This document shows, one piece after another, positions 19,554 to 51,770 of a stretch of DNA of 64,000 bases (position 1 is its first letter; each line of letters opens with the position of its first letter). A model generated the notes under the pieces. That model ran no database searches and had not been told where the DNA came from. It was given only the letters and a program-made list of their open reading frames with translations. The stretch is taken from assembly GCA_947629655.1 (NCBI GenBank), contig CANREL010000005.1, positions 24,790 through 88,789 of the forward strand, in the 5' to 3' direction. A program made the position numbers and the translations under genes. The DNA comes from an uncultured Bacilli bacterium. Its GTDB lineage: Bacteria > Bacillota_I > Bacilli_A > RF39 > UBA660.

Positions 19554-19581
19554 GTTAATAGTAATAATAAGGGGCGATTAG

Positions 19582-35840: not shown

Positions 35841-35878
35841 AAAAGCATATTTTTTAAAATATGCTTTTATTGTTTTTG
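35838..35878. terminator. bidirectional terminator
   Basis: Palindrome AAAAGCATATTTT-TTA-AAATATGCTTTT with flanking T-runs on both strands. Confidence 0.65.
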
Positions 35879-36610
35879 AGTAACGATCAACTTTACTTTT
35901 AGTTTTAAGACACTATCTTCTGGATTTTCTTTTTTATAAGCTATACTCTGTTCACCCCAATATGTGTCAGCATCATCACTTTCAACATATAGACCACTTT
36001 CGACGAAACTGTCAAAATCGCTATCAGTGACATCAGCAACACTATATTCACCATCACTTTCCGTGTAATAATTTATACCTGGAGTATAAGTGTATAATGA
36101 ATTCAACTTGTAATAAGCATTGGATGACTCAAAAGGCCAATTGACATTGACACTAAAGTTGATGCTTTCATTTTTATCAAGTTCCGTTTTATCGTATTGA
36201 AAACTCAAGGAAAAAGGTAAATCATTAGCTAAGTAATTGATTAAGTCTTCACTGGTATAAGTTACACCAAAAGCTGTTACCTCTTGAATTTCATAAGAAA
36301 AAGTAGCATCTAGATCACTATTGTTTCTTATGATTAAGTTTTTAGTAAAAGTCTCCATTCCTGGATATAAATCATCTAAAGAAATATCCAAAGTTTCAAC
36401 TTGTTCTTCTTCATATACAAAAGAAATATCCCAAGAAATGACATCAGCGTTTATATAACCATTACCATTAGTGGCAAAAACAAACCAAGCAAAAGAGTTG
36501 ACAGCTAATAAGAAACCTGCCATGATGTAGGCTCTTATCTTGATAGCACGTCTATTCTTCTGCAAATTCTTGTATATTTTATTCACTTGTCTCTTGTTCT
36601 TCTTCATCAT
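35867..36610 (-). CDS. secreted protein with SipW-cognate-like signal peptide (TasA/camelysin-like candidate)
   Basis: Basic n-region plus h-region, followed by ...AVNSFAWFVFATNG, which resembles the SipW-cognate signal motif. It lies immediately downstream of sipW. Start placed at MMKKNK to limit overlap with sipW. Confidence 0.45.
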   Translation of the reverse strand: MMKKNKRQVNKIYKNLQKNRRAIKIRAYIMAGFLLAVNSFAWFVFATNGNGYINADVISWDISFVYEEEQVETLDISLDDLYPGMETFTKNLIIRNNSDLDATFSYEIQEVTAFGVTYTSEDLINYLANDLPFSLSFQYDKTELDKNESINFSVNVNWPFESSNAYYKLNSLYTYTPGINYYTESDGEYSVADVTDSDFDSFVESGLYVESDDADTYWGEQSIAYKKENPEDSVLKLKVKLIVTQKQ

Positions 36611-37154
36611 TCTCACTATCATCCTTTGCTTGAGTAACAACATCGGCAATCTCTAAGAAGATTACTAATACTAATGGAACAAATACTATGAAATAAAATC
36701 CAACTTTAGTTCTTATGATCTTAGTTAAAAAACTTAGAATTACAAATTTGTGAGACACTTTTCCATATAGACGATCTTTCTTAATGATGGGATCAGCTTC
36801 ATCGTTAGCGACACCCTTAGTTTGCAAAGTACCATCTTCTCTATTAATCGCAATGATGCGGTGTGTTACAATGCGGTCTTTAAAGTCGCCTGTCTCCCCT
36901 ATATATGTGACGTCATCACCAACTTTTAAAGACTCATATGATGATTCTTTTACCAAAAGGACATCACCAACATCATAGACAGGTTCCATACTTCCAGTAG
37001 CGATTGTGAAGACGCGATAACCCATCAAACTACTGTTGTTACTAAATTTTTGGAAAACCAAAAATCCAACATATAGAGCTAGTAATAGAACAAAGATAAA
37101 TTTTATTGTTCCATATACGATTTTAAAAATTTTATTATCCATTATTTTACGCAT
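36579..37154 (-). CDS. sipW: signal peptidase I, archaeal/SipW type (S26B)
   Basis: N-terminal TM, catalytic Ser motif IATGSMEPVY, conserved His in IVTHRII, and a C-terminal TM as in B. subtilis SipW. RBS GGGGG sits 6 nt before the chosen ATG. Confidence 0.8.
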   Translation of the reverse strand: MRKIMDNKIFKIVYGTIKFIFVLLLALYVGFLVFQKFSNNSSLMGYRVFTIATGSMEPVYDVGDVLLVKESSYESLKVGDDVTYIGETGDFKDRIVTHRIIAINREDGTLQTKGVANDEADPIIKKDRLYGKVSHKFVILSFLTKIIRTKVGFYFIVFVPLVLVIFLEIADVVTQAKDDSENDEEEQETSE

Positions 37155-37164
37155 AAACATCCCC

Positions 37165-38256
37165 CTAATCTAAACATGAATAAGCTTCTTCAACATTAGT
37201 ATTAAGCTTTTTTAGACGTTCTTGGAAAGTCTTAATAATTTTATCATTACGCTTATCAAATCTATTCTTAGCACTTTTAAATTCATCTTTGAAGACTTTT
37301 TTAATCTTGTCTTCTAATATTTCATCATCCATATCAAGAATATTTTCAATGACACGCGCTAAAGCAATTGATATAGCTTTCTTCTCTGATACTTCATCCT
37401 TTTTCTTAGATAGAGCATTCAATGCTAAATATTCTAGTAAAAAAGATTGATCAAATTGATTCTTTATATCACCAATATCATTTATATTTTTATTTGTCTT
37501 TTCAACGACACAGTCATCTTGAACATAACTTTGAATAAAGTTCCATAACTCAACAGCTTTTTGGAAATTAGGATTCTTTAAAATGACATTAGTCTTTCTA
37601 ATAGGAGAACGAACAGGAGCGACGTGAAGATGATTTAGAGTTTGAAATAGTTCACTAGAAGTAAAACCATCCATTTGAATTTTTATATTCTTTAAACGTT
37701 GTTCAATTGATTCTCCACTATCATTATTTTTAGTAGTTATATTTTTATCAAAAGAAGTATATAAAAGAGATATTTTGACATCTTCATTACCGATACGCGT
37801 ATTGGCTTCATACTTGGCTTCTTTACGATCTATGTAGTAAGAGTCACCAGTTATTTGCGCAGAATGTTGTTCAAAAAAAGTTAACATGTTATTTATAAGA
37901 GTAAAAATAAATCTATTTTCATACGTATCAAGACTTTCATCTTTATTGATATTAAGGATTTTAGATGGTCTAACATCACCTTTATCTTTATCATAATCTT
38001 GAATTAAATTAGTGTGTTGGGTCAAATGAATAATACTCTCAACAGTTACTTTTTTAGATTGTTCAACTTTTACTATCTCTTCTTCATTGATGATAAAACG
38101 TTTAGGATTTCTTATAATGTTATCGATATAGGGAATGACATCTTCAAATATTTCAATCCAAGTATAGTTGTACTGTTTACTGTCATAGTCGGTATTTATT
38201 TCTAGAATTGAATTCAATTCATCAATAAATGTCGTACTAGTTTCCACATTGTCCAT
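37165..38256 (-). CDS. hypothetical protein, possible McrC-like partner of the upstream McrB-family GTPase
   Basis: 363 aa (McrC-like size), encoded 15 nt downstream of the McrB-like gene. No clear PD-(D/E)xK motif seen by eye, so the call rests on context only. Confidence 0.4.
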   Translation of the reverse strand: MDNVETSTTFIDELNSILEINTDYDSKQYNYTWIEIFEDVIPYIDNIIRNPKRFIINEEEIVKVEQSKKVTVESIIHLTQHTNLIQDYDKDKGDVRPSKILNINKDESLDTYENRFIFTLINNMLTFFEQHSAQITGDSYYIDRKEAKYEANTRIGNEDVKISLLYTSFDKNITTKNNDSGESIEQRLKNIKIQMDGFTSSELFQTLNHLHVAPVRSPIRKTNVILKNPNFQKAVELWNFIQSYVQDDCVVEKTNKNINDIGDIKNQFDQSFLLEYLALNALSKKKDEVSEKKAISIALARVIENILDMDDEILEDKIKKVFKDEFKSAKNRFDKRNDKIIKTFQERLKKLNTNVEEAYSCLD

Positions 38257-38271
38257 AACATTACCTCCTAA

Positions 38272-39831
38272 CTAAACCATTTTCTTAAGTCGTAATAAGT
38301 ATTCTTTACATTCATTAAAATGTTCACGACCGAATTCTTGGTCTAAGAATTTTATAAATTCATCTATTTCATCACGAATATACGCTAAGTTTAATTGTTC
38401 AAATTTTCGCAAAATCTTTCGGGCGATGAAATAGTCAACACCATCGACTTCTTCACCACCACATTCGATGTAAGCAGAAACGAAGTCTCCCATCTGTTTT
38501 ACGATACGGTTACCAAAAGCGATACGGAAATGCTTGATTACATAGTCATCCATCTCTTCGATTTTCTTATGCATTTCAGCACTCATTGGATGATTTTGTT
38601 TAGCTTTTTCGTATAGGCCTTCGAGATAACTACTATTGATGTTCATGGCATCAGTTGGAATTGGATCAAAGACTTGTCCTTTATCGTTGATGTCGATTGG
38701 CATCGCACGGTCATATACTTTATCAGTTACGGCAAAAGTTGAGTCGTCGTTATTGATCGTTCCAATATACCACATATTTCCAGGTATCTTCAATTTTCCA
38801 TCAATCAAATTTTTAGGGTCAGTTGGCCAACTGCTCGATACCAATTCAATGATCCATTCATCACGGCTTGGCATTTCTAGAATTGACAACATTTCAGCGA
38901 AATAGTACTCAACACGAGCGATGTTCATCTCGTCGAGTACAGCTACATAGACGTCATCATTATAACCAGCTTCATACATTTTCTTTAGAATCTCGGTTTC
39001 GTTGAACTTCTTTGTAAATTCATTGAAGTAACCAAACAATTCAGTACGGTCACGCCATGAGGGTTGAACAGAAGCGATGATGGCATCATTTTTGATAAAT
39101 TTACCCCAAGCATAAGCAAGGGAAGTTTTACCTGTACCAGAAATACCTTGTAATATTACTAATTTAGTACAAGCTAGAGATGATATGAACAATCTTATCA
39201 TTTCCGTCTTGTAATATAGTCCCAATTTAGAAGCAGCAAAGTTTCTAAAGAGACCAACTAATTCTTCAAGAGTAAAAGTATTATTATAATTTTGAACTTT
39301 ATAATCTTTAAATTCTACATCGATACTATGAAGTTTCGTAAATCTGATATTATCATCATCAGGTATTTCTTCTTCACCTTCTTTAGGTTCTTCACCATCT
39401 TCTTCCTCAGGCTTTTCTTCAACTTTTTCTTCAGCACTTTCACCAGGTTTTAATCCCATTTGTGACACTTTCATAGCTAGTATCTTTTCTTTTTCTTCAA
39501 CTAAATCTGTCACTTTTTTATTCAAGACAGCAATCTCATCCAACATTCCTTCCTGTTCGACAAGAGTCTTTCGAAAGCGCACATATTTTCTAATAATAAA
39601 ATATACTAACAAGATTATAAGACCTAGAACAGCGATCATCACCGCTATGGCAATAATCGTTAAAACCCATTCTTTTATGCCAAATTCTTCTTTGTAAAAA
39701 GCAATTACTTGAATGTAATTAGGTATGTTAAACATCTGAACTATACCATTGATAAATCCCATGACTATGGATTTAACACCATTAAAGAAAACTGACATAA
39801 ACTCATATAAAAACTTAATAAATTTACTCAT
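38272..39831 (-). CDS. McrB-family AAA+ GTPase with an N-terminal transmembrane/coiled-coil/acidic region instead of a DNA-binding domain
   Basis: Segment-by-segment match to E. coli McrB motifs: ILQGISGTGKT (Walker A), VQPSWRDRTELFGYF, VLDEMNIARVEYYFAEMLSILE (Walker B region), MWYIGTINNDDSTFAVTDKVYDRAMPIDI (McrB signature MNxxDRS ... RRF). The N-terminus has a hydrophobic TM segment (LTIIAIAVMIAVLGLIILLVYFII) and an EEKVEEKPEEEDGEEPKEGEEE acidic tract. Confidence 0.7.
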   Translation of the reverse strand: MSKFIKFLYEFMSVFFNGVKSIVMGFINGIVQMFNIPNYIQVIAFYKEEFGIKEWVLTIIAIAVMIAVLGLIILLVYFIIRKYVRFRKTLVEQEGMLDEIAVLNKKVTDLVEEKEKILAMKVSQMGLKPGESAEEKVEEKPEEEDGEEPKEGEEEIPDDDNIRFTKLHSIDVEFKDYKVQNYNNTFTLEELVGLFRNFAASKLGLYYKTEMIRLFISSLACTKLVILQGISGTGKTSLAYAWGKFIKNDAIIASVQPSWRDRTELFGYFNEFTKKFNETEILKKMYEAGYNDDVYVAVLDEMNIARVEYYFAEMLSILEMPSRDEWIIELVSSSWPTDPKNLIDGKLKIPGNMWYIGTINNDDSTFAVTDKVYDRAMPIDINDKGQVFDPIPTDAMNINSSYLEGLYEKAKQNHPMSAEMHKKIEEMDDYVIKHFRIAFGNRIVKQMGDFVSAYIECGGEEVDGVDYFIARKILRKFEQLNLAYIRDEIDEFIKFLDQEFGREHFNECKEYLLRLKKMV

Positions 39832-39840
39832 AGTTACTCC

Positions 39841-40911
39841 TTACATCATATTTAATTCACTAGAAAAAGTCTCTTTTCCCTTAATTACATAGTTTTCAAC
39901 TAATTGGGCATCTTCTTTCTTTACTCCTTCTATAATTACATATTTAAATATATCAAAACTCTCTATTTCCGCAAGACGTTTTTCAATGACGATAACTCTT
40001 GAAAGATTGACAGAAAGTGCAAAACGATAAGCTTGTAAATTCTTGAATAGTGATTTATGTGTTTTATAATCGTTATAATTTATGATAAAAACGATATTAT
40101 TTCTAACTCTAGGATTATTAAAAGATTTAACTAAGTCTTCTAAATCCTCTCTTTTTTCGATATCGGTTAGAGGTAAATCAATGAAATAATCATTTATTTC
40201 TTTACCATTCAACATGCGATTCAATAAGTCAACACCGACTAGATTAATTGTCGCTTTCGTTTTATCTAAACTTATTTTTTCACTATTATAGTTTTTACTC
40301 AAAACACTTTTACTGTAGTTTTTTTCCAATTGTTCAATATAATAATCGAGTATGACCTTATACTTAGTACTACTATTTTTATAACTGTAATAATTGACTT
40401 CAAATGTATCATTCTTAGTACCACTGAAGAACTTGCGTTCTTTTAAAGTACTATCTTTAACCAAAGCACTCATCGCATCTAATTTTTCTTCATCATTAGT
40501 CATTACTTTTTTATTTTCGACTAAATTTTCGCGTAAACTCTCTTTGAATTCGACAAGTCTAGTACAGTAAGGGAAACTGCTCAAATCTAATATTATCGAA
40601 ATGAAGGTATATTGATAACATCTATTTATCAAAGTCTCTTTAGCTTTTTCATCTTCACTACCTTTTGTTTCTGCTAACAACTCAAGTCGTTTACCCTTTA
40701 GCTCTTTAATCATTATTTTGTCATCAAATTTAGTTATGACTTTGTCATAGTAAGTATCAAGAATGTGGTAATAGCGCGTATTGATATAAGTTTGAATAAA
40801 TTCATTTAAATATTCTTCAGCATCACTTTTATCTTTTTCATCGATAAAAACTAAAGCATAATTAACTAAATTGCGTTTTTTAAAATCAAAATACTTACTA
40901 ATTATATTCAT
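39841..40911 (-). CDS. hypothetical cytoplasmic protein
   Basis: 356 aa, K/N/E-rich, with no signal peptide. It sits 9 nt upstream of the McrB-like gene. No family recognised. Confidence 0.45.
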   Translation of the reverse strand: MNIISKYFDFKKRNLVNYALVFIDEKDKSDAEEYLNEFIQTYINTRYYHILDTYYDKVITKFDDKIMIKELKGKRLELLAETKGSEDEKAKETLINRCYQYTFISIILDLSSFPYCTRLVEFKESLRENLVENKKVMTNDEEKLDAMSALVKDSTLKERKFFSGTKNDTFEVNYYSYKNSSTKYKVILDYYIEQLEKNYSKSVLSKNYNSEKISLDKTKATINLVGVDLLNRMLNGKEINDYFIDLPLTDIEKREDLEDLVKSFNNPRVRNNIVFIINYNDYKTHKSLFKNLQAYRFALSVNLSRVIVIEKRLAEIESFDIFKYVIIEGVKKEDAQLVENYVIKGKETFSSELNMM

Positions 40912-41001
40912 ACTATCACCAGTCTACTCTAACATAAATTATAACATAGTTAATATTAATAATTCAATTGTTATATAAAAGAAAAAGATGTTTTAAACAT
41001 C

Positions 41002-41967
41002 TCAATTTTCTAGGTCTTCAACCGAAGTGACAAATACTTTTATACTTGAATCAGTCGTACCCGGATAAGAATAGTCTTTACTACTATCATTTTTGTAAAA
41101 AATTATTTTCGTGTTGGAACTTGCTTCCATGTCAAAACTGAAACCATTGACGTAATTGTGGCCATTTATAACTTCCGTGGTTTGCGAATCTTTTTCCCTA
41201 TTGATATAAGTCTGCTCTGTCATGTCTAGAAGAATGATATTCGGGTCAAAAGTCAAATCGACAGATGCTGAGAAACAGTTCTTTTTTTCTTCATCAGACA
41301 ACTTTTCATAATCATCGATAGCTATATTATCACCGACATTATGTCCATCAAAAGCGGTCACTACTTTGTAATAAGTAAAAGCATTGGTTAGTTCTAAGGT
41401 CAAATATTTTTCACCAGGAGCATCTTTAATTGAATAATAGAAACTAGACGTCGTAATTCCAATATTGTATTCGGTTGATAATTCTTTTACGTAGGGATAA
41501 GTAGATTTGGCACTAGTCTTTACTATTGCTGTCTGATTTCGCGTAAAGTTACCATTGGGATAAATCGTTATGACATAACTATCTGATTGGGTCTCACTAC
41601 GAATGATACCACTAGTTTTACTAAGGGTACATCTAATATTTGAAGAACACTCAACACCAATGTCGTAAGATATATCAGATTTAGTGTAGACTAAATCATT
41701 TTTCCTATTATTGACATCAATACTGATACGATAAGGTGAAACACCATCCCAGTTATTGATACTGTGATTAGAACCAGTCATCGACATTACCGAAGAATTA
41801 AAATAGAAACCTTGGCTCTCTAAAATATGATTTTTATAGATGTCATAAATATATTTACTAAAAGTAATGCCAACTGTGAAGACAACGATTAAAACAGCTA
41901 TTAATATAGTTAATAACTTCTGTTTTTTAGACAATTTAAATTTAAACTTCAATCTCTTCTTTGTCAT
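41002..41967 (-). CDS. secreted/membrane-anchored protein with SipW-cognate-like signal (TasA-like candidate)
   Basis: 321 aa. N-terminal basic region plus TM, followed by ...TFSKYIYD.... Ser/Thr/Asn-rich beta-type composition. Confidence 0.45.
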   Translation of the reverse strand: MTKKRLKFKFKLSKKQKLLTILIAVLIVVFTVGITFSKYIYDIYKNHILESQGFYFNSSVMSMTGSNHSINNWDGVSPYRISIDVNNRKNDLVYTKSDISYDIGVECSSNIRCTLSKTSGIIRSETQSDSYVITIYPNGNFTRNQTAIVKTSAKSTYPYVKELSTEYNIGITTSSFYYSIKDAPGEKYLTLELTNAFTYYKVVTAFDGHNVGDNIAIDDYEKLSDEEKKNCFSASVDLTFDPNIILLDMTEQTYINREKDSQTTEVINGHNYVNGFSFDMEASSNTKIIFYKNDSSKDYSYPGTTDSSIKVFVTSVEDLEN

Positions 41968-41975
41968 AGTTCTCC

Positions 41976-42602
41976 TTAAACAATTTGTTCTGAATCAATT
42001 ATTACTTCAATATTTTCAATGGCGTCACTATATTCGATGACGTCTTTATAGACTGTCGGAAAATCAATTACTAAATAATAGATATTAGTAGTTCGCTCAG
42101 TGTAAGAAAATTCATAAGTAGTTCCAACTGTCAATAAGTTATACCAACTACTATCTTCATCTTGTAAGAGATCACGGCGCGTGATGATATCTTTTTCATC
42201 CAAGTTATATTCTTTATAATACAAACGATATTCCAAAGGCATATTAGTCGTCGTTTGAATCTTTAAATTATATTTCAAATCGACGTCTGATTTTCGTTCT
42301 TCATTAAAATTAGAAACACTGAAAGTATATATATATGGTTCGTCTTTCGGAATTATTTGATCGATATCGATATTGAAAGACATTTCACCTTCATCGAGAA
42401 CGAACATAGCGGTTTGAATATCTAGTGATAGATTAGCTTTTGAATAATATGAAGAAAATGATTTTATGAGAGAGAATATTCCAAAGGATAAGATAGAGAT
42501 AAAAACGATAGAAAAGATAATGAATCTAATCTTATACTTGTTTTTCTTATTTCGTTTAAATTCTCTAATATTATGAAGGAATATATTTATAATTCTTTTC
42601 AT
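41976..42602 (-). CDS. secreted protein with SipW-cognate-like signal (TasA-like candidate)
   Basis: Start placed at MKRIINIF (GGTGA RBS). Signal anchor followed by ...SFSSYYSKAN.... Confidence 0.45.
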   Translation of the reverse strand: MKRIINIFLHNIREFKRNKKNKYKIRFIIFSIVFISILSFGIFSLIKSFSSYYSKANLSLDIQTAMFVLDEGEMSFNIDIDQIIPKDEPYIYTFSVSNFNEERKSDVDLKYNLKIQTTTNMPLEYRLYYKEYNLDEKDIITRRDLLQDEDSSWYNLLTVGTTYEFSYTERTTNIYYLVIDFPTVYKDVIEYSDAIENIEVIIDSEQIV

Positions 42603-42618
42603 AAAATCACCTTTCTCT

Positions 42619-43194
42619 TTATTCTCCTCGATATTGTTCAGCCTCAAATTCAAGATTTAAATAGTTTGGTTCAGCTCCATTAGAACCGATTTGAGAATCA
42701 GCTTCATCGCTATTCTCATCATTGACCCATTCGACATTTATTACTAATACTTGGGTATCTTTCATCTCATCAAGAGTTATTATTCCAGAATAGGAATTAA
42801 TTGAATCTTTTTGTAATTCATCATTTTCAAGATATATTGATGTCACAGTCAAAATACAATTGGGATCCATCGTATGATCAGTATAAGTTATGTGATATTT
42901 GATGGCGACTTCAGTTCCAGTAGGATCGATATTAATGCGAACTGTTCCTTTACTACCAGGGGCTACTTTATCATTGTCAGTGTGTTCACTATCCCAAACA
43001 ATATTACTAAGATTGATATCACGAGTAGCGGTCGCAATGTTTTGATCATCGATTAAAATTTTCCAATCAGCTATATCGACAGTCACATCATCATCAACTT
43101 CAGATTCGTAAGCTGTATAAGTCTTATTACTAAAGAGATACAACGAAAAAAGAGAAATTATAACTAGAACAATTAAAATATTTTTCTTCATCAT
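42619..43194 (-). CDS. secreted protein with SipW-cognate-like signal (TasA/camelysin-like candidate)
   Basis: 191 aa. MMKKNILIVLVIISLFSLYLFS then NKTYTAYESEVDDD (compare the SipW-cognate motif ...AYFSD). Confidence 0.5.
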   Translation of the reverse strand: MMKKNILIVLVIISLFSLYLFSNKTYTAYESEVDDDVTVDIADWKILIDDQNIATATRDINLSNIVWDSEHTDNDKVAPGSKGTVRINIDPTGTEVAIKYHITYTDHTMDPNCILTVTSIYLENDELQKDSINSYSGIITLDEMKDTQVLVINVEWVNDENSDEADSQIGSNGAEPNYLNLEFEAEQYRGE

Positions 43195-43270
43195 ATCACT
43201 CCTATCTATACTTATTCATCATAATTATAACAATTTTTTCCAAATAAAAAAAGTCATGAATGCATGACTT

Positions 43271-43798
43271 TTAATCTTTATCATATTTTAATATCATTAT
43301 TAGATTATAAACTTGATAAATGAATAGAACTAAAATAGGTAATATTACAAAAATTAGGAATCCAACAGTTGATGTTAAGAAAGATATAATTTTACCATAT
43401 TTAGGATATGAAGCTTTGTAAACACCTAATACTCTATCACTAGATATAGATACTCTTTCATTACCTTCAAATGTATATAGAGCTGTTCTATTATCACCAG
43501 TCTTAGTCTTAACTATACCCATTCTGACGATGTATTCTTCATTTAAAGTATCGTAATAGTACAATTCATCACCTATGTTTACATCAGTGTATAAAACATC
43601 TTTTATTATTACTAAATCACCTGGATCATAATGAGTCAATTCCGTTATATTTTTATCATCAATGATTATTAAAGTATTACTACCGAACTCAGTATATCCG
43701 AATTGATTGCGTAAGAAAACAATACTTACCATGAACATAGCAAATACTATTATCAATATTTCGACAATCCCTAAAATAAACTTTAACAGGCTCTTCAT
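43271..43798 (-). CDS. SipW-like signal-peptidase paralog lacking catalytic residues (pseudo-peptidase)
   Basis: Same architecture as SipW (N-terminal TM, beta core, C-terminal TM). The Ser motif is replaced (EFGSNTLII instead of GSMEP) and the conserved His is replaced (IVRMGIV instead of ITHRII). Confidence 0.45.
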   Translation of the reverse strand: MKSLLKFILGIVEILIIVFAMFMVSIVFLRNQFGYTEFGSNTLIIIDDKNITELTHYDPGDLVIIKDVLYTDVNIGDELYYYDTLNEEYIVRMGIVKTKTGDNRTALYTFEGNERVSISSDRVLGVYKASYPKYGKIISFLTSTVGFLIFVILPILVLFIYQVYNLIMILKYDKD

Positions 43799-43887: not shown

Positions 43888-43918
43888 AAAAATATCCACA
43901 AAACTGTGGATATTTTTT
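43888..43918 (-). terminator. terminator after the giant surface-protein gene
   Basis: Hairpin ATATCCACA-AAAC-TGTGGATAT with T-runs on both strands. Confidence 0.55.
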
Positions 43919-46900
43919 AAACATTTTTCCTAATGATGATGTATTCATAATCTTCTTCAATTATTTGGTTACCATCATACAACTTGAATAGAACCCGATA
44001 TGTTCCACTCTTTAAATCATCGCGAAGATTATAATTCAAAGTAATTGTAGCAGTTGGAGTAGTCGTTACCATATGTTCATTCTCCGTCTGTTTAGTAAAC
44101 GTTCCTTCTGGGAAAGAGAAAGTATCAGTAAATATCTCATTAGGACTTATTTCAACATATTCATTAGTGTTATGTGTTTGTGTATCACGTCTATAAACAC
44201 TTAAACGAATATTAGGGTTTTGTAAAACAGATTGATATTTAAGAGTAAACTTTTCAACTTTGGCATCATCCATGTTGAGACCAGTTTCACCAATTACTAA
44301 TTTAGAATTATCTTCAGTGCTGGAAACGATTAAATTATTATTTCCGACGACGACGATTTCTTTTTCAATGATTGTCGGTTGTTTGGTACTACTGTTGTGA
44401 AGACCATCATTAGATGCAAATAGAGCGATGCGCATCGTATAACGACCTGTTGGCAACTGTGGACCAGTCATCATAGTGATGTTTTTCGTCAAGTTGGCAA
44501 CTTTATCAGTCAATTTGATACGGAAGATACCTTCACTATCGACATAGTAAACGACGTCATCAATGACAATGGTCGTACTACCAAGTTGAGATGAAGATAC
44601 TTGATCACCAGATGCGTTGAACAATGTCACATTAATACCCATACTACTACTCTCATAATTGGTATCGACAATAGATTGAAGGGAACCAGTCAATTCATAA
44701 CCGACAGAAGTGTGATAATTGATAGTCTTAGGGGTGTCATAATAAAGATATTGAGTATCCATATCAGCTTCTTCAGTTAAAGCAACGTTACTTGACTGAT
44801 ACAAATTGTACTTCATCAATTCTTGACGAATACCTAAAACACTAGTGATACAGAAGTCTTCATCGTTGTGTAGTTCAAACAAAATGGTGTTATCGAGTTG
44901 TTCTCCTTGAATGTCAGTATCTTCAAAGTCAAAGATGAAGATGAATTCCTCCATGACATAGTTAGTGTCAGCGTGATAATACAAATTATTACTTTCGATA
45001 TCATTATAAGTATTATCTTTATCGATTGAATCCATGCGAATGAAGTTCGACAAGCGATAACTTACTTGACCATCTTCGTAAGAAGCAAGAGAAGTTTGAT
45101 ATGACTCTTCATCGACAATATAGTAGTAATATGCAGGATTTTGTTCATTTGCTCCATAGTCGATCATCGTTATTTTAGTACCAACTGGGAAAACATAGCT
45201 AGATACTAAAGCATGGTGATAATCGTTTAGTGAACCATAAGCATCTTTAATTCTAGTCTGACTTTCAAAAAGAGAGAAATACGCTGTGAACTGACTCTTA
45301 TTAGTGATGTTGACATCGACTGCCGATGGCATTTCATATTTTTTACCAAAAGTTATACTTCCGTCATAAGCGTCTTTATCATCATATTCTTTAGAATCAA
45401 TCGTTATCGTTATCGTAACTAGTTCAACTTTATGTTCAATCTCATTGATTGGCGTCAAGGCTTGAAGAGTTACGACGACAGTTCCAAGTTTTTGATTACC
45501 CGTTATGTTCTTAGCATGATACAAATAGAACATCAATGATGGAGCGACAGTCTGGTTATCAGTTTCATAGACGACATCACCTAAATAACGATTACCATTT
45601 TCATCTTTAGTGTATCTCGTCGTAGCGTGACTCGTCCACTCAATCGTCTCTGCCTTCATTGAAAGACCGAGAATTTTAGATGCTTCTTCTTCCGTTGGAG
45701 CTAGTTTTGGAACTTCGGTAGAATCTTTTAAAGACACTCCTTCAGCTAATCCATTACCATTGAATCCGATGACATTGAAGATTGTATTACCTTCGGTGAA
45801 ATCGGTCATTGATAATTCGTAAGTACCAAGAGATGAATACTTAGACGCTGTCAAAGAGAATGAATAATTGATTGATGAAGTACCAATAGTCCATCTGTAG
45901 AAGTTAGAATCTGGTGGAGTTGGTTCAACGTAGTCAACTGTCAAAGCATCATAAGAATCATTTATGTAGTTGGTGTAATAACCATCTTCTTCAATATTGT
46001 GATCCAGTTTGTGCAAACCTAAGACGTATGAACCACCCGTTATCAAGTCATCAGCACTGACACTAGATTGTGCTGTTTTATCATAATCATACATTCCATA
46101 GACAATAGTACCATAGTTTTGATACATTCCTAGGAAGGTCATACCGGAAACAATTCCGTAGTCGGTAGCTTTTTCGTTCTTCGTAACATTTAAATTTTTA
46201 CCAGCAAGCATGTATAAGCGATTATCAACGTTACGGACAACAGTACCACTTTCTTTATCAATTGTAACAGTAGCTTTTACTTCTTCACCATTTACTTCAG
46301 CAATGCTATCAAACTCTTCAAGCATATTAGCATTTTGTTGTAATAAAAGTGTAGCGTTATTTTTCAATTTCAATTTTTTAATACGATTTAATGAATAAAG
46401 GATTGTTGAATACTCGTTAGTTCTATCGGTCGTACCGACTAATTCCAAAGTTGAATTATCAAGAGTTACAGAGTCCGCTCTTTGAATTGAAATAGCTGAG
46501 TTTGGTTCATTACGAGTACCAAGACTCTTAATGATGATATTAGATGGACCAGAAGATGATGAAGCATTACCAGAACCGAAGATACTTCCGTGAATCTTAA
46601 ATTTCAAAGCATTGGAACCATATCCTGTTCCGTTTATGACGATATCAATACCATCGGTAACACTTATGGCTTCGAAGTCATATATTTCTGATCCAGCTTC
46701 GTTAGCTTCTCCTCCACCGAAAACAGTACCAGCGATGTTGATGTCACCACCATCATTCAATTCGATATCACTGATGGCATTGAAACCGATATTTACTTGG
46801 GTCTTACCATTGACAACGGATGTATTACATCCTCCGTAAACATTCTTTCCGACAACAGCACCAGCGACATTCACAGTAGCAAGACTACTACCTCCAGTCT

Positions 46901-49900
46901 CTCCGATTGGTCCGTGGTTACCACCACCAAAGATACTTTCATTAACAGTGGTTTCACCAAGAACAAAAACGGTTGTATTACCTAGTAATCCAGCTTGATT
47001 ACCACCACCATAAATAGATTTATTTACTGTAGAATTTTTTACTGAAATGATGGCATTACCAGTCGTTTCAGCACGATTTCCACCACCGAAAACATTTTCA
47101 TAAGTTCCTTTTTCTAAATCGATAGTTGGATCACTTGTCGTTCCACCGAGGTTATTACCACCATAGACGTCACCAATTGTTAGTTCTTTAGTGCTGTCTA
47201 CCGTTTTTATATTAGAGGTACTAACATCACCATCTTGATTAGAACCACCGAAAACAGTCGTTATCGTTCCACCATCAAGATTTATATTTGAAGTAGTAAC
47301 ACCAACTTTGTTACCACCACCATACATATTAGTAACAGTACCATCATTCATCGTTATATTTGTGGTTGAAGTTAGTCCAGCGATGTTATTTCCACCGAAG
47401 ACATTAGTCGTCGTACTACCATTTATAATGATTGAAGATGTGGCGATGTTTCCACCAGCATTACTTCCACCATATAGATTAGTTACAGTTGTACCATTTT
47501 GAACTACATGTGTACCATCAGTGACATCGGCATTTTCTCCACCACCGAAGACGTCAGGAACAGTCGTACCATTGAGAGTGACATTAGTTGTTTGCGTTTT
47601 CGCTAATCTTCCACCACCATAGACAGCTGTCTTTATCGTTCCATCTTCAATGGTGACATTACTAGTAACCGTATTTCCAGCGACGTTATTTCCACCATAA
47701 ATAGTTTCAACAACACCACTCTTAGCAATGACATTGGATTCAGTTACAGTACCACTCGAATTACTTCCACCGAAAATACTCGTGACGGTACTTCCTTGAA
47801 GGTTGACGTGATTTGTCTTAACGCTAGCGTTATTTCCACCACCGAAAACACGACCGATGATACCATCATTTAAATTGACTGTAACTTCACCATTTGGCGT
47901 TCCAGCTGCATCATTTCCACCGAAGACATCCGTTATATTTCCACCATTGATATTGACCGTTATGTCACCAAGAACATATGGCGTATATGTTCCGTTACCA
48001 CGGCCACCACCAAAGACAGAATTTTTTATAATACCTTTATTGATGTTGACAGTCGTACCGTTTTTAGACACCGCTGTCGAATGCGAAAGACCATTGACTG
48101 TTCCAAATGCACTTCCACCATAGACAGATCCATTGATTGTCGGTGTCGTCGTATAACTTTCATCACCAACATTGATTTCGACTGTATCTCTTACAAAAGT
48201 TCCACCTGAACTTCCAGTCGTTCCACCATATCCACCACCATAGATATCATTATTGACAACACCACCATAATGGTTGATTACGACGTCACCATGAATGGAA
48301 CCTTCTTCATTACTTCCACCATATATTGATCCAACCGTACCATCATAGACATTTATAGTAATAGTTGCATCTTTATTATCATCACCAGAGCCATTACGGT
48401 TTCCTCCACCAAAGATACTTCCGTGAATATTTCCGTTTAAAACGTTTATCTTGGTCTCAGATGAAGGTAATGACGAACTGATACCAACGGCACCATAGTT
48501 ACCACCACCATAGACATTGCGCAAAATGTTAGCTTCACCATCGATGATGATGTAAGAGTTGTTAGCTGTTCCGATGGTGTCAGTACCTGCTTTACCATTA
48601 CCGATTCCAAAGACACTACCAGCTTCAAAACCGAATAGAGTCGAATTATTATCGACATATTGTTGATTACCAATTGTAGCGTTACCACCGATATATATGT
48701 ATGGTGAACCGGTCAAAACACCTTCTGTTCCACTACCAGTAATACCATTACTTCCACCAAAAACACTATAATTAATCGTTCCATCAGTAACTTGAATGAC
48801 GCGATTACCATAGGTTTCTGATCGACCAGCACCACCGATGATGGCATCAATTGAACCACCTTTAATGTAGAACAAATCGTCGTTATAATTAGCACTGCTC
48901 GATTGAGAAAGAGGGCCACCGATTAAGTTATATATCCATCCACCCTCAACTGTTATTTGACGAGTAGCATAAATTCCACCATAGGCACGACCACCGACAT
49001 AAATACCGTAAGTATAGCTGTTAGTATTAGAATTTGTGTAGTCAGTTGGACGATGGGAACCAAATTTACCACTCTTAACTTTCTGTTTAATAGGTGTATC
49101 CGTCGTCGAAGTACCACGAACATTGCATCCCCAAGAACCAGATGCTGTATAGTAAACATCTAAATTGTTATCATTATTAGCAACGCGGTCATAGTCATTA
49201 CCATAAATAGATTCAGCATGAACATAGACGTTGTAAGTACTAGTCGTCGCACCACAGACTAAGGAAGTCGTGTTATAGTATCCTGATTCAACAATCAAAC
49301 GATATGGCGTTGGCGAAGAAGATGATCCAACATTTTGGTTTCCACCACCAATTACAGAAGCGAAATTAGACTGATTAGTCGCTGAAGCTTTAATACCACG
49401 ACCTATTTTGACATTGTTGTAATAACCGTATAAATTTTTACTACTAACACCACTAGTAGCATTGGCTTCAGTACGACTTTGAGCTGAATAAATAGTAATG
49501 TTTTCAATACCCAAATCATCACCAGCACGAATGTAGGCATTGGACAAAGTCCATGTCGGATTGTACTCTCTTCCATCATAAGAAGATGTCACCGTCAATG
49601 GTTTAGTCTGACTGCTTCCCCAAGCTCCAGTCAAAGCACTACGAACGACGATCAAGTTAGTATCACGCGTAACTAAGTAATAGTATTCTTCATCGATATC
49701 GAAATTACTTGTTGAACCATTATCATCATAATATTGAATTAAATCATAATATGTACATGAAGTAGAACCACAAGTTCCACTAGTGTGTAAAACACCAGTT
49801 TCATCATAATAACCAGCTAAACTTTGACCACGTGATAAGTTGACTTTTTTATAGAAAGTACTCATATTGTCACGTTCATCATAAAGAGGATATTTAACTT

Positions 49901-51770
49901 CATCATAAGAAAGCATTGGTGGCTCAATATCAGCATGATTGACAACTTCCATATTTTCATCAATCAACTCATAGTAAGTCGTATCTTCATCATAAAGTTT
50001 TCCAACTTGTTCAACGTAGACAGTACATCCACTTCGCGTATTACAACGAGATGATGTCGATAAGCTACTACCACTAGCATTATGACTGTTAGCGGGATAA
50101 TAACTACGATAATTAACAGTTTGTCTAACATAATAACCATCCATCAACTTATCATTTATGTCACCATAAACAACATTTTCTTTACGGATTTCATAAGTTA
50201 CAAGTGGTTGCATACTCTTATCTTTGAAAGAATTAATGGCATTGGTCAAATTAGTTGAACTCGTACTGTTAGAAAAATAGATGTCAGCACTTACCCAAAC
50301 TGCATCAAATTTGATATTGATATCTTCAGGTGTAGAACCGTTATAATTGATAGGAATTCTTACATATCTTGTATAAATTGCGTCGTCATAACTAATATTC
50401 GCACTAAAATAATCGGTACGCCAACCATTAAATCCATAATCAGCTGGTCGATTGGTGAACGGATTGTCAATAAGTTCAAACTCGACATAATCGTCTTCTT
50501 TAGAAGCTGTACCATTATCATTAACTGGATAAAGATTGTAGTAGACATAAGTATCTTGCGTCTCATTGACAGATACAGTTCCGTGATAAGTTTCACCATT
50601 TTTCGTCATACCACCATAGTAAGTCGTCTGCACTGTTACTAAGTTATCATCAGAATAAACTTTTTTATTCTCCATACTTGGCAAGCGCCCATCTTCACTA
50701 TAAGTGTAATTAAGTCCCATGTAATAGTTATAGTCAGAATCCAAATCATTGACATAGACAGTATTATCACTTATTCCTGAATCGTGAAGGACAATTCTTT
50801 CAGAAACAGCACGTTTCTTAGTATCATTTGGTTTTTCAACAACTTCATTTATTTTCAAATAATAGATATCATTTTCATAAACCCATTTATAATCTTTCGA
50901 ATAGACGTTTTCATTAAGTGTACTCAAGAAGTTCTCTGTCACATTATCTTTTGTATAGACACTCTCAGAATTGATATTAGAATCAGTAACATTACAATCG
51001 AGCAAAATATTATCAAATAGTGAAGTCTCACTAATCTTACCACTGATACTTCCAACGACAGTTTTCTTTTCTTCACTGATCAATTCAGTTTTTATATAGG
51101 AATTAGCTATTTTACTATTAACATTTTCCCCACTGATACTTCCAATATAAATGTTTTCCTTACTCTGTTCATTCTTTTGAATATTGATACTACTATCCGT
51201 AAGAGATAGATTACTGATAGAAGAATCATTAGAAATACTACCAGCTATAACACCGACGTATAAATTATTTTCAGCAATCGTATTGATAGTGACACTAGTC
51301 AAGTTTAAATTACTTATATTGGCACCATCAATCTTAGTAAAAATTCCCGTATAAAGAGAAGAATCGATACCTTTACTAGCAATTATTTTCAAATTGGCAA
51401 TCGTATGACCTTGACCATCAAGAATACCATTAAAAATATTAGTACCGCTTCCAATTGTTTCAAAGTTTAAATTACCCATGTTGATATCAGCCGTTAAAAC
51501 ATAATATTTACTGCGATATAAAGCACTGTCTCTTCCTTCAATAACTTGTTTAAAATAAGCTAATTCTTCGCCATTAGATATCTGGTAAGGATTAGCTTCA
51601 GTACCATTTCCACCATCAAAAGAAGTCGCTACTTCACCACTCCAAACATTTTCTATTGTCACAAAGTTACTAAAGGTACTTGGTGATAACCAAGATGAAA
51701 TTCCAACTACTATGATCAATAGAAAAAAGATACAAAGAACTAAGTTTTTCTTGAACTTCTTTCGATACAT
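43917..51770 (-). CDS. giant (2617 aa) secreted surface protein with parallel beta-helix-type tandem repeats (adhesin/fibre-like)
   Basis: N-terminal signal/anchor (KKNLVLCIFFLLIIVVGISS). More than 25 tandem ~20-aa repeats of the form (V/I)(F/Y)GG(G/S)N..G.(V/T), similar to Pmp/autotransporter beta-helix repeats. No LPXTG or C-terminal TM. Confidence 0.8.
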   Translation of the reverse strand: MYRKKFKKNLVLCIFFLLIIVVGISSWLSPSTFSNFVTIENVWSGEVATSFDGGNGTEANPYQISNGEELAYFKQVIEGRDSALYRSKYYVLTADINMGNLNFETIGSGTNIFNGILDGQGHTIANLKIIASKGIDSSLYTGIFTKIDGANISNLNLTSVTINTIAENNLYVGVIAGSISNDSSISNLSLTDSSINIQKNEQSKENIYIGSISGENVNSKIANSYIKTELISEEKKTVVGSISGKISETSLFDNILLDCNVTDSNINSESVYTKDNVTENFLSTLNENVYSKDYKWVYENDIYYLKINEVVEKPNDTKKRAVSERIVLHDSGISDNTVYVNDLDSDYNYYMGLNYTYSEDGRLPSMENKKVYSDDNLVTVQTTYYGGMTKNGETYHGTVSVNETQDTYVYYNLYPVNDNGTASKEDDYVEFELIDNPFTNRPADYGFNGWRTDYFSANISYDDAIYTRYVRIPINYNGSTPEDINIKFDAVWVSADIYFSNSTSSTNLTNAINSFKDKSMQPLVTYEIRKENVVYGDINDKLMDGYYVRQTVNYRSYYPANSHNASGSSLSTSSRCNTRSGCTVYVEQVGKLYDEDTTYYELIDENMEVVNHADIEPPMLSYDEVKYPLYDERDNMSTFYKKVNLSRGQSLAGYYDETGVLHTSGTCGSTSCTYYDLIQYYDDNGSTSNFDIDEEYYYLVTRDTNLIVVRSALTGAWGSSQTKPLTVTSSYDGREYNPTWTLSNAYIRAGDDLGIENITIYSAQSRTEANATSGVSSKNLYGYYNNVKIGRGIKASATNQSNFASVIGGGNQNVGSSSSPTPYRLIVESGYYNTTSLVCGATTSTYNVYVHAESIYGNDYDRVANNDNNLDVYYTASGSWGCNVRGTSTTDTPIKQKVKSGKFGSHRPTDYTNSNTNSYTYGIYVGGRAYGGIYATRQITVEGGWIYNLIGGPLSQSSSANYNDDLFYIKGGSIDAIIGGAGRSETYGNRVIQVTDGTINYSVFGGSNGITGSGTEGVLTGSPYIYIGGNATIGNQQYVDNNSTLFGFEAGSVFGIGNGKAGTDTIGTANNSYIIIDGEANILRNVYGGGNYGAVGISSSLPSSETKINVLNGNIHGSIFGGGNRNGSGDDNKDATITINVYDGTVGSIYGGSNEEGSIHGDVVINHYGGVVNNDIYGGGYGGTTGSSGGTFVRDTVEINVGDESYTTTPTINGSVYGGSAFGTVNGLSHSTAVSKNGTTVNINKGIIKNSVFGGGRGNGTYTPYVLGDITVNINGGNITDVFGGNDAAGTPNGEVTVNLNDGIIGRVFGGGNNASVKTNHVNLQGSTVTSIFGGSNSSGTVTESNVIAKSGVVETIYGGNNVAGNTVTSNVTIEDGTIKTAVYGGGRLAKTQTTNVTLNGTTVPDVFGGGENADVTDGTHVVQNGTTVTNLYGGSNAGGNIATSSIIINGSTTTNVFGGNNIAGLTSTTNITMNDGTVTNMYGGGNKVGVTTSNINLDGGTITTVFGGSNQDGDVSTSNIKTVDSTKELTIGDVYGGNNLGGTTSDPTIDLEKGTYENVFGGGNRAETTGNAIISVKNSTVNKSIYGGGNQAGLLGNTTVFVLGETTVNESIFGGGNHGPIGETGGSSLATVNVAGAVVGKNVYGGCNTSVVNGKTQVNIGFNAISDIELNDGGDINIAGTVFGGGEANEAGSEIYDFEAISVTDGIDIVINGTGYGSNALKFKIHGSIFGSGNASSSSGPSNIIIKSLGTRNEPNSAISIQRADSVTLDNSTLELVGTTDRTNEYSTILYSLNRIKKLKLKNNATLLLQQNANMLEEFDSIAEVNGEEVKATVTIDKESGTVVRNVDNRLYMLAGKNLNVTKNEKATDYGIVSGMTFLGMYQNYGTIVYGMYDYDKTAQSSVSADDLITGGSYVLGLHKLDHNIEEDGYYTNYINDSYDALTVDYVEPTPPDSNFYRWTIGTSSINYSFSLTASKYSSLGTYELSMTDFTEGNTIFNVIGFNGNGLAEGVSLKDSTEVPKLAPTEEEASKILGLSMKAETIEWTSHATTRYTKDENGNRYLGDVVYETDNQTVAPSLMFYLYHAKNITGNQKLGTVVVTLQALTPINEIEHKVELVTITITIDSKEYDDKDAYDGSITFGKKYEMPSAVDVNITNKSQFTAYFSLFESQTRIKDAYGSLNDYHHALVSSYVFPVGTKITMIDYGANEQNPAYYYYIVDEESYQTSLASYEDGQVSYRLSNFIRMDSIDKDNTYNDIESNNLYYHADTNYVMEEFIFIFDFEDTDIQGEQLDNTILFELHNDEDFCITSVLGIRQELMKYNLYQSSNVALTEEADMDTQYLYYDTPKTINYHTSVGYELTGSLQSIVDTNYESSSMGINVTLFNASGDQVSSSQLGSTTIVIDDVVYYVDSEGIFRIKLTDKVANLTKNITMMTGPQLPTGRYTMRIALFASNDGLHNSSTKQPTIIEKEIVVVGNNNLIVSSTEDNSKLVIGETGLNMDDAKVEKFTLKYQSVLQNPNIRLSVYRRDTQTHNTNEYVEISPNEIFTDTFSFPEGTFTKQTENEHMVTTTPTATITLNYNLRDDLKSGTYRVLFKLYDGNQIIEEDYEYIIIRKNV
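46560..48440 (-). repeat. in-frame tandem coding repeats (~60 nt period) encoding the GG(G/S)N beta-helix repeats of the giant protein
   Basis: Periodic xFGGGNxxGxV units are visible in the translation. Many antisense shadow ORFs (P/L/V-rich) in the track fall in this stretch. Confidence 0.5.

Follow-up and report, generated by a model that had tools for sequence, protein, structure and literature searches.

A membrane-anchored McrB-like GTPase and a McrC-like partner without a nuclease domain in a SipW-type signal peptidase gene cluster of an uncultured Bacilli bacterium

Gene content of the cluster

The window analyzed here, a stretch of 64,000 nucleotides, contains a cluster of 10 genes designated, in order, G, s, a, b, c, X, B, C, S and d. 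All the genes and candidate signals described below are on the minus strand. G (43917..51770), the first gene of the cluster, encodes a 2617-aa giant protein that is secreted or anchored. It is followed by s (43271..43798), which encodes a SipW-like protein of 175 aa that has a TM helix at each terminus and lacks the catalytic Ser and His. The genes a (42619..43194; 191 aa), b (41976..42653; about 200 aa, or 225 aa for the longest ORF) and c (41002..41967; 321 aa) encode secreted proteins, and X (39841..40911) encodes a 356-aa cytoplasmic protein. Next are B (38272..39831), whose 519-aa product is an NxD-type McrB-like GTPase anchored in the membrane, and C (37165..38256), which encodes its 363-aa McrC-like partner. 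The operon ends with S (36579..37160), encoding a 193-aa SipW-type (i.e., archaeal/ER-type) signal peptidase I, and d (35867..36649), encoding a secreted protein of about 245 aa, whose longest ORF (260 aa) overlaps S.

The ORFs of X, B, C, S and d were all present as originally predicted. X and B are separated by 9 nt and B and C by 15 nt, while the gap between C and S is 4 nt when the longest S ORF is considered; the predicted gap of 10 nt corresponds to an S start at the third codon, which is also ATG. The genes are thus tightly packed, and the proposal that B and C are co-transcribed with sipW and a secreted-protein gene was supported. Given that B and C have >8000 and 3218 homologs, respectively, they are not chance ORFs. 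A consensus scan found a terminator-like hairpin between s and a (43249..43272; a 10-bp stem and then a T-run), which is a possible boundary or attenuator separating G-s from a-b-c. The 90-nt gap upstream of X contains a promoter-like site (40938..40967; 10/12 matches, extended TG), which is a consensus match only; the region has no more promoter-like sites than expected from shuffled sequence.

The original prediction that B is a McrB-family GTPase in which a membrane anchor replaces the DNA reader was supported. B matched the NCBIfam McrB model (E=1.4e-5), and E. coli McrB was its sole match in a PDB sequence search (E=8e-5), with correspondence at Walker A and Walker B, in the signature loop and in the Arg region. 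Its AAA+ core, which starts at residue 163, contains Walker A (GISGTGKT, residues 229-236; 39124..39147), Walker B (D300/E301), the signature N360-N-D362 (38746..38754) and R375. The core alone also matched PADLOC PDC-M26A (E=5e-38; profile positions about 312-438 of 724). Across 33 sequences with identities down to about 32%, little or no variation was seen at Walker A, Walker B, the sensor Asn or Arg375, and the family alignment shows N360 and D362 without any substitution. The signature of the window B is GTIN-N-D-D-ST; in all the family representatives in which the motif was located by regex (about 125/150) it reads G-T-x-N-x-D-[DE]-S-T, except that the residue directly after N-x-D is G, Q or A in three of them. 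Judged by this signature, B belongs to the NxD branch as defined previously (PMC11090510).

No Pfam or NCBIfam DNA-binding domain was found in residues 1-162 of B. This region has a single strong hydrophobic helix at approximately residues 56-80 (39592..39666; Kyte-Doolittle 3.2), followed by RKYVRFRK, and an additional weaker hydrophobic segment at the N-terminus. It continues with a heptad-like, coiled-coil-like stretch at residues 85-128 (39448..39579), with L-L-N-V-L-M in one register, and an acidic linker at residues 129-162 (39346..39447) with 18 D/E versus 3 K/R. Sub-threshold matches of the TM and coiled-coil region to FtsL_2, FtsL or DivIC (E 0.003-0.12) were found in five of 10 B homologs and not in the window B.

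Residues 18-130 of C (37867..38205) matched Pfam DUF2357 (PF09823), the McrC N-terminal domain, above the gathering score (E=5e-12), and neither domain-family nor structure searches identified a nuclease family or nuclease fold in C. The suggestion of a McrC-like partner that lacks a PD-(D/E)xK domain was supported. Conservation in C is highest at residues 56-106, which are modeled by AF2 with low confidence. A long beta-hairpin follows at residues 139-174, and the C-terminal half is predicted to be helical, with modeled helices at residues 263-283, 291-309 and 315-362, of which the terminal one is 48 residues long.

The cluster encodes two kinds of signal peptidase homologs. S, which has N- and C-terminal TM helices, matched the archaeal-type/SipW signal peptidase I model TIGR02228 (E=2e-22) and, under the equivalog cut-off, the SipW model NF046067 (E=9e-18). 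Its catalytic pair, Ser57 and His100, is kept in 108/119 and 106/119 family members, respectively, and S is thus predicted to be an active signal peptidase. The match of s, which is encoded upstream of B-C and has TM segments at residues 11-29 and 145-163, to TIGR02228 was weak (E=0.024). In its family alignment, the Ser column is occupied by E, D, N or I and the His column by G or A, from which s appears to be a peptidase-like protein that is catalytically dead and might act as an assembly chaperone. There is precedent for such a function in SipA of S. pyogenes, a non-catalytic peptidase-like pilus assembly factor (PMC4049620).

The secreted proteins a, b, c, d and G share a predicted cleavage motif of the TasA-like type, aromatic-small↓x-aromatic. 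The family motifs are T-Y-A↓K-Y for a, where it comes after the hydrophobic region, Y-A↓x-Y-E-S for b, T-F-G↓R-Y for c and N-x-F-A↓W-F for d. In G, STFS↓NF comes after a single hydrophobic segment near the N-terminus (residues 10-28). Mature TasA begins at residue 28, and its new N-terminus serves as a donor strand (PMC9674648). In profile-profile comparisons with hhalign, a aligned with b (probability 96%, E=1.7e-9) and with d (probability 95%, E=2e-8), which shows that a, b and d are paralogs. The leader of c is of the same type as that of a and its mature domain is different; c aligned with the family of a only over the leader region. G matched no Pfam family. Searches of the PDB with the profiles of a, b, c and d found nothing meaningful, and none of the four window proteins matched any Pfam family; Peptidase_M73 (PF12389, camelysin/TasA) was touched by one of 29 d family members (E=0.006). 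Thus, a TasA-like fold of a-d was not demonstrable with PDB profile searches and Pfam.

X has a helical domain at its N-terminus, and its C-terminal part appears to adopt a degenerate EAL-like fold, in which no EAL signature residues were recognized; it had no Pfam EAL match, and the hhalign probability was 11%.

Conservation of the cluster in gut Bacilli and Clostridia

The B-C pair lies within the 10-gene cluster, which was found in all 84 related loci of gut Bacilli and Clostridia. C directly follows B in 82 of the 84 loci, signal peptidase homologs are found in 82, and 82 retain the adjacency to S and d, with near-zero intergenic gaps. The median gaps are 14, 1 and 6.5 nt, where 1 nt is the gap between C and S and 6.5 nt is that between X and B. 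In Bacilli the genes are usually arranged as G s a b c X B C S d; the common arrangement in Clostridia is d S B C together with a giant gene. A homolog of G is present at the cluster edge in 46 of the 84 loci, and one Clostridia-type locus has after C a 2391-aa giant gene whose sequence is unrelated to G. Clostridia-type loci also contain a canonical EAL gene (Pfam E=1.4e-46), an X family homolog is absent from the minimal Clostridia-type loci, and neither the window nor any retrieved locus showed a GGDEF motif. The genes flanking the cluster in three related loci (L001-L003) are unlike those of the window or of a fourth locus (L004), and the cluster is intact throughout. It had been considered earlier that the neighborhood of sipW might be unique to this genome; it is instead a feature of the 84 loci from two bacterial classes.

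The identity of B across loci is 58-85%, compared to 20-78% for all other cluster proteins, and B evolves more slowly than any other gene there. This pattern fits a conserved cytoplasmic enzyme that serves fast-evolving surface parts. Searches of 50,697 phage records, 72,556 plasmids and 2.9 million viral contigs found no full-length relatives; the viral contigs carry a few distant relatives. The nearest relatives without a TM helix are CoCoNuT-like proteins, some on plasmids, with identities of up to 37%. A closely related clade of 2-TM NxD GTPases occurs in "B B C B" modules that lack a neighboring peptidase, which suggests that the B-C unit can work in another context. No nuclease domain was found in the nine scanned cluster proteins or G, and no HEPN, pore-forming or NADase domain, or any other effector, was recognized in any cluster protein.

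Comparison with known systems

The original prediction held that this arrangement was undescribed, which was not borne out. Under the name CoCoPALM, Bell et al. 2024 (PMC11090510) had already described a large clade of McrB GTPases that have the NxD motif and are fused to FtsB-like TM/coiled-coil domains, together with the association of this clade with signal-peptidase-family proteins. That account is one paragraph without component list or mechanism and defers the detailed analysis to a later paper; our literature search found neither that paper nor any CoCoPALM experiment. Three of the four features given for CoCoPALM are found at this locus: the NxD signature (usually followed by D or E), an adjacent DUF2357-type McrC homolog with a helical or coiled-coil extension, and signal-peptidase neighbors. 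For the fourth, the FtsB-like domain, the TM plus coiled-coil architecture is present and FtsB/FtsL homology is sub-threshold only. Nothing contradicts membership, and on its sequence features the locus is a CoCoPALM member. The present analysis adds the 10-gene architecture, the dead/active peptidase pair, the EAL-like X, the leader motif and the giant protein, none of which was found in the searched text and supplements of PMC11090510.

With the canonical McrBC systems of E. coli and T. gammatolerans, the locus shares an AAA+ GTPase core with Walker A/B, sensor Asn loop and Arg finger region, and a DUF2357 partner encoded immediately downstream. It differs in its NxD instead of NxxD signature, in the membrane anchor, coiled coil and acidic linker of B that take the place of the N-terminal DNA-binding domain, in the absence of the PD-(D/E)xK nuclease from C, and in the embedding of the pair in a secretion/fiber operon instead of a defense island. 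A canonical McrBC restriction system was therefore rejected. CoCoNuTs belong to the same NxD branch and have coiled-coil fusions and McrC homologs that often lack an active nuclease, but their GTPases are soluble, and they always occur with HEPN or other nucleases in tandem according to the authors (PMC11090510). As no such nuclease lies beside B or C in the cluster, assignment to CoCoNuT was also rejected. So was membership in PADLOC PDC-M26: the core of B resembles subunit A, whereas its N-terminus differs, no other subunit was matched, and neither C nor X matched any PADLOC model.

The operons tapA-sipW-tasA of B. subtilis and sipW-bsaA-bsaB-bsaC of C. perfringens resemble the cluster in combining a SipW-type Ser/His peptidase with several paralogous secreted proteins, in the aromatic-small↓x-aromatic cleavage context and in having no sortase signal. 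BsaA oligomers are membrane-anchored (PMC11580942). These operons have no NTPase; the cluster here adds to the SipW fiber-operon plan a GTPase pair, a dead peptidase paralog, an EAL-like protein and a giant protein. The analog of s is SipA/LepA of S. pyogenes, which is signal-peptidase-I-like, lacks catalytic residues and is needed for pilus polymerization in a pilus locus (PMC4049620). SipA, however, is of the bacterial P-type family and acts with sortases, whereas s, which has two TM helices, resembles the ER/archaeal-type SipW, and there is no sortase gene in the cluster. X differs from the degenerate-EAL receptors and adaptors FimX, LapD and YdiV/STM1697 in having no detectable EAL sequence signature and in carrying the N-terminal helical domain.

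Possible role in surface-fiber assembly

This CoCoPALM locus probably encodes a McrBC-derived NTPase module that has lost its DNA reader and nuclease and become part of a SipW-dependent surface-fiber/adhesin cluster. The sequence evidence favors a role in the assembly or control of surface fibers over one in defense. By analogy with McrB, B would oligomerize into a hexameric GTPase ring, which its TM helix and leucine-zipper-like stalk would hold at the cytoplasmic face of the membrane. C may bind this ring through DUF2357, inserting into its pore, and stimulate GTP hydrolysis; motif conservation and the conserved DUF2357 region are what point to a GTP-dependent hexamer with C in the pore. The helical tail of C, possibly with the EAL-like X, might connect the ring to the membrane peptidases S (active) and s (dead, chaperone-like), so that GTP turnover would gate or drive the processing, polymerization or membrane anchoring of a, b, c, d and G. 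We infer both the formation of fibers and the direction of this coupling between B-C and the peptidases. TasA-type fibers assemble outside the cell without an NTPase, which leaves the need for a cytoplasmic motor unexplained. A bolder version, possible though we hold it only tentatively, is that CoCoPALM is a new NTPase-dependent surface-fiber machinery of monoderm gut bacteria, in which an EAL-type-controlled, membrane-tethered B6-C GTPase ring drives or gates the SipW-mediated maturation and polymerization of TasA-like subunits and the anchoring of giant adhesins. If so, a restriction-enzyme motor would have been exapted as a pilus assembly engine, playing the part of the PilB-type ATPases of type IV pili with unrelated components.

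Instead of a mechanical motor, B-C-X could be an inside-out signaling switch with a logic like that of LapD/LapG/LapA or FimX, which we consider doubtful. X would sense a cytoplasmic nucleotide signal, or B would read the GTP state of the cell, and the output would pass through the TM helix and stalk of B to S at the outer face, deciding between release and retention of G and the fiber subunits. The tight coupling of X to B and the canonical EAL genes of Clostridia-type clusters are consistent with such a switch, as is the presence of a giant surface protein together with a membrane protease, which is also the arrangement in Lap systems. However, X has no recognizable EAL signature and no homolog in the minimal Clostridia-type loci, GGDEF motifs were not found in the window or retrieved loci, and B has little extracytoplasmic sequence for contacting a protease.

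It is quite unlikely that B-C, alone or together with X, forms an anti-phage or abortive-infection module embedded by chance in a pilus/adhesin locus, where it might guard a phage-receptor structure and act through membrane-level killing or shut-off in place of a nuclease. Defense is suggested by the characterized McrB-family members, which are restriction enzymes, by the strong partial match of B to the candidate defense protein PDC-M26A, by the partly plasmid-borne CoCoNuT-like relatives and the few distant ones on viral contigs, and by the free-standing modules of the sister clade in unrelated contexts. Defense genes are expected in patchy, shuffled contexts, whereas the order with peptidases and secreted proteins is fixed over the 84 loci. 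Of the two alternatives raised in the original prediction, we thus favor the fiber-assembly motor because of this strict synteny across two classes, because no effector domain was recognized, C had no PADLOC match and close relatives were absent from phages, plasmids and viral contigs, and because no other cluster gene evolves as slowly as B. Highly improbable, in our estimate, is that B is an FtsB/FtsL-like envelope or division protein with a meaningless adjacency to fiber genes, or that B-C is what remains of a restriction system in decay. The sub-threshold FtsL, FtsL_2 or DivIC matches and the loss of both the DNA-binding and the nuclease domains would be in line with these possibilities, but the invariant catalytic motifs and the conservation of B across classes exclude decay. 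The near-gapless adjacency of the pair to S and d likewise argues against both, as does the persistence of the intact cluster where the flanking genes differ.

Organization of the cluster and its GTPase-partner pair

Ten consecutive ORFs were called on the minus strand of the window between 51770 and 35867. In order, they encode the giant protein G (43917..51770, 2617 aa), the dead SipW-like paralogue s (43271..43798, 175 aa), the secreted proteins a (42619..43194, 191 aa), b (41976..42653) and c (41002..41967, 321 aa), the EAL-like protein X (39841..40911, 356 aa), the McrB-like GTPase B (38272..39831, 519 aa), its McrC-like partner C (37165..38256, 363 aa), the active SipW-type signal peptidase S (36579..37160, 193 aa) and a fourth secreted protein, d (35867..36649). 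The gaps from X to B and from B to C are 9 and 15 nt, respectively, and that from C to S is 4 nt, widening to 10 nt with the third codon of S as its start. Given these short gaps, a promoter-like site in the 90-nt gap upstream of X and a terminator-like hairpin between s and a, X-B-C-S-d plausibly form one transcription unit within the larger cluster. The tightly packed minus-strand unit of the original prediction, with gaps of 9, 15 and 10 nt, was thus recovered, the last value being that of the third-codon start of S. S and d, taken as their longest ORFs, share 71 nt (36579-36649). Translation of d probably begins at one of the internal Met codons (MMKKNK...), in which case the two genes would still overlap slightly. 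The identical NCBI protein of B (P0001) is annotated 11 residues shorter, at 508 aa (the difference lies at 39799-39831). We favor the longer 519-aa start, since homologous sequences align from residue 1 of this form.

The only PDB sequence match of B was E. coli McrB (E = 8e-5), with which it aligned motif by motif, i.e., in Walker A (GISGTGKT vs. GPPGVGKT), Walker B (DEMNIA vs. DEINRA), the signature loop and the Arg region. The NCBIfam McrB model and Pfam AAA_5 matched B weakly, and the PADLOC candidate PDC-M26A matched its core at 5e-38. HMMER searches of 1.84 billion cluster representatives identified 8197 B relatives, 755 of them at E<=1e-30, and every representative in which the motif was locatable had the signature G-T-x-N-x-D-[DE]-S-T. 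NxD, usually followed by D or E, is the variant that defines a major non-canonical branch of McrB (Bell et al., 2024; PMC11090510). K235, T236, D300, N360, D362 and R375 of B were invariant, and E301 nearly so, in an alignment reaching down to ~32% identity; with its catalytic residues conserved in this way, B is expected to be an active NTPase.

The N-terminal 162 residues of B contain one strong transmembrane (TM) helix (residues 56-80) followed by RKYVRFRK, which predicts a cytoplasmic orientation of the enzyme part. At the N-terminus is a weaker hydrophobic segment, which in more distant homologues is a clear second TM helix. B also has a ~44-residue heptad-like stretch and then an acidic linker with 18 D/E, and matches of its N-terminus to FtsB were sub-threshold only. 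The motif-by-motif PDB match, the TM helix and the lack of a DNA-binding domain bear out the earlier proposal of a membrane-anchored McrB-family GTPase without a DNA reader.

The partner had been noted to show no obvious nuclease motif, and no nuclease family or fold was found in it. C matched Pfam DUF2357 (the N-terminal domain of McrC) at residues 18-130 (E = 5e-12), and its C-terminal half is helical. Among the 120 best matches, the full-length homologues of C were ~351-386 aa long and nearly all contained DUF2357. The AF2 model of C (pLDDT 75) begins with an alpha/beta part, continues in a long beta-hairpin (139-174) and is helical in its C-terminal half, the last helix having 48 residues; a Foldseek search of this model against PDB returned nothing significant. 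The best-conserved segment of C spans ~42-127, and its 56-106 part was modeled at low confidence, as would suit a segment that folds against a partner.

Peptidases, secreted proteins and the EAL-like protein

Two SipW-like genes are found in one cluster (s, 43271-43798; S, 36579-37160; both on the minus strand). By its match to TIGR02228 (2e-22), S is a signal peptidase of the archaeal/ER (SipW) type. Ser57 and His100 are conserved in its family; the s family has the same two-TM layout but neither residue. In being peptidase-like and non-catalytic, s recalls the pilus factor SipA/LepA of streptococci, and SipA of S. pyogenes acts as a chaperone in pili (PMC4049620).

Each of G, a, b, c and d contains a single N-terminal hydrophobic segment. 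A family-conserved motif, aromatic-small|x-aromatic, follows this segment in a (TYA|KY), b (YA|xY), c (TFG|RY) and d (NxFA|WF), with the small residue at the position that a type I peptidase would cut. G of the window has STFS|NF at the same place, an observation that applies to the window sequence only, as the N-terminal alignment of the G family was poor. The motif in a-d resembles the leader of TasA, which reads TWA|AF. Mature TasA starts at residue 28, and its new N-terminus serves as the donor strand of the fiber (PMC9674648). Homology among families a, b and d extends past the leader (hhalign 96 and 95%), and families c and a have only the leader in common. Searches of the a, b, c and d profiles against PDB sequences found nothing meaningful, and Pfam searches with 29 members each of a and d gave one marginal Peptidase_M73 match; a TasA/camelysin fold was not established by these profile and Pfam searches. 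A Pfam scan of G matched no family. The central part of G (43917-51770, minus strand) is rich in short G/N/S/T-rich repeats (e.g., GGxN, VFGG and IYGG), which suggest a beta-helical adhesin. The local GC is 0.38 at G and about 0.31 in the rest of the window.

The model of X, which is of high confidence (pLDDT 91, pTM 0.86), points to a degenerate EAL-like fold. A Pfam scan of X gave no EAL match, and the profile-profile signal between X and EAL was weak though collinear. X diverges fast: it has 22 word-sharing homologues, with identities of 20-57% where those of B are 58-85%. A scan for GGDEF motifs in the window and all related loci found nothing, which says little on whole genomes.

Conservation, class assignment and proposed role

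Scanning one genome per GTDB species revealed at least 583 stretches encoding B relatives. The best 80 of these (55-83% identity) were from gut/rumen MAGs, labeled as Bacilli, Mycoplasmatota or Tenericutes, Erysipelotrichaceae, Clostridia, Acutalibacteraceae, Oscillospiraceae, Ruminococcus sp. CAG:488 and Clostridium sp. CAG:567. In 84 related loci, analyzed by ORF calls and HMMs iterated from the window proteins, C followed B in 82 and peptidase homologues were found in 82. The usual order was G s a b c X B C S d; an extra a-type gene frequently lay on the opposite strand. The median intergenic gaps were 14 nt from B to C, 1 nt from C to S and 6.5 nt from X to B. Clostridia-type loci kept the minimal d S B C; in the one inspected (L062), a longer C (724 aa) and a 2391-aa giant gene of unrelated sequence come next, and a canonical EAL gene (Pfam 1.4e-46) lies upstream. 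Ten Clostridia-type loci and five metagenome loci had EAL homologues. B was the most conserved cluster protein in all 12 loci compared.

A metagenome scan seeded with more distant 2-TM relatives of the NxD type, 33-45% identical to B, mostly yielded modules of the order B B C B (e.g., L094-L146) with up to three B paralogues per locus, a C of ~600 aa where sized and no detected signal peptidase; a minority of its loci had S-B-C-S or the full cluster. The one B B C B locus inspected (L143:5808-11805) was flanked by housekeeping genes (heliorhodopsin, MutY-like and GNAT). In a third architecture (P0287-P0370, 550-840 aa), 4-5 TM helices are joined to the same NxD AAA+ core. From the B B C B modules, in which no peptidase was detected, it follows that the B-C unit is modular and that linkage to the peptidase is a trait of the window's clade, not of every membrane-bound NxD GTPase.

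The arrangement had been thought undescribed, but Bell et al. (2024; PMC11090510) already named the class CoCoPALM and deferred its analysis to a later paper. We found no such paper, nothing on CoCoPALM in the accessible portion of their supplementary material, and, in a paper naming both SipW and McrB, mcrB only as an E. coli strain genotype. The window locus has three of the four features stated for CoCoPALM and is FtsB-like in architecture only. It is not a conventional McrBC, given its NxD motif and the lack of a DNA-binding domain and a nuclease, nor a CoCoNuT, as there is no HEPN or other nuclease in tandem. The locus is thus a well-preserved member of a named, uncharacterized class and not a new kind of system. 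The analysis adds to what was described an EAL-like partner, a peptidase pair of which one is active and one dead, a common leader motif with paralogy among the subunits, a giant protein, a ranking of the cluster proteins by conservation and a sister clade of B B C B modules; these sharpen the hypothesis and make it testable.

We propose that B would form an McrB-like ring tethered under the membrane and that C would dock via DUF2357 and activate GTP hydrolysis. Through the helical tail of C, through X or through both, the ring would be coupled to the two peptidases, S and s, and to the leaders of the secreted proteins in the membrane. The cycle would gate or drive cleavage, hand-over and polymerization or anchoring of a-d and G. 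TasA-type fibers themselves assemble outside the cell and without an NTPase, a point against a cytoplasmic motor. By analogy with SipA in S. pyogenes pili, the dead peptidase s may be a chaperone. A serious alternative is that the module regulates and does not act mechanically, with X as a sensor in the manner of Lap or FimX. The original prediction had left the choice between defense and fiber assembly, and of these assembly is favored. Although the ancestry of the family, the PADLOC match of B and the free-standing sister modules speak for defense by B-C, this role is less likely because no effector was recognized, the synteny is fixed and B evolves slowly, and because the phage, plasmid and viral-contig records yielded no close relative: none covering at least 80% of B occurred among 50,697 phage records and 72,556 plasmids, and 2.9 million viral contigs gave six distant matches to the core only. 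A mobile defense island was likewise rejected, these searches having given only distant matches limited to the core.

McrBC is the textbook GTP-driven restriction motor. Here, a large and strongly conserved branch of its family, carried by abundant and mostly uncultured gut Firmicutes, is without DNA recognition or nuclease and is built into a surface-fiber/adhesin operon, which points to a defense motor exapted for cell-surface biogenesis or its control. With an active and a dead SipW-type peptidase, an EAL-like cytoplasmic protein, a GTPase and its partner, four secreted proteins of one leader type (three of them paralogous) and a giant secreted protein whose motif is similar, the locus provides a complete and compact parts list for CoCoPALM, which makes the question directly testable. 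The answer would bear on the making and control of adhesive fibers in the gut by monoderm bacteria, among them possibly the wall-less Mycoplasmatota-like lineages.

Flanking genes

The flanks of the cluster vary while its composition is constant, the window and L004 having one set of flanking genes and L001-L003 another. Downstream of the cluster in L002 and L003 (~14900-21542) are genes for small proteins of 99 and 80 aa and a 1525-aa FtsK/SpoIIIE ATPase, a set resembling a type VII secretion (EssC/WXG100-like) locus. L001, a metagenomic relative, has transposase genes (rve, HTH_21, DDE_Tnp_ISL3) beside the cluster at 14270-15510 and 19546-19917, which are absent from the otherwise identical L002 and L003. 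T-box leader riboswitches scoring above the Rfam gathering score are found on the minus strand of the window at 30317-30498 and 3854-4033. The former is upstream of a 183-aa ORF, which is followed by one of 945 aa that corresponds in L004 to a class I tRNA synthetase.
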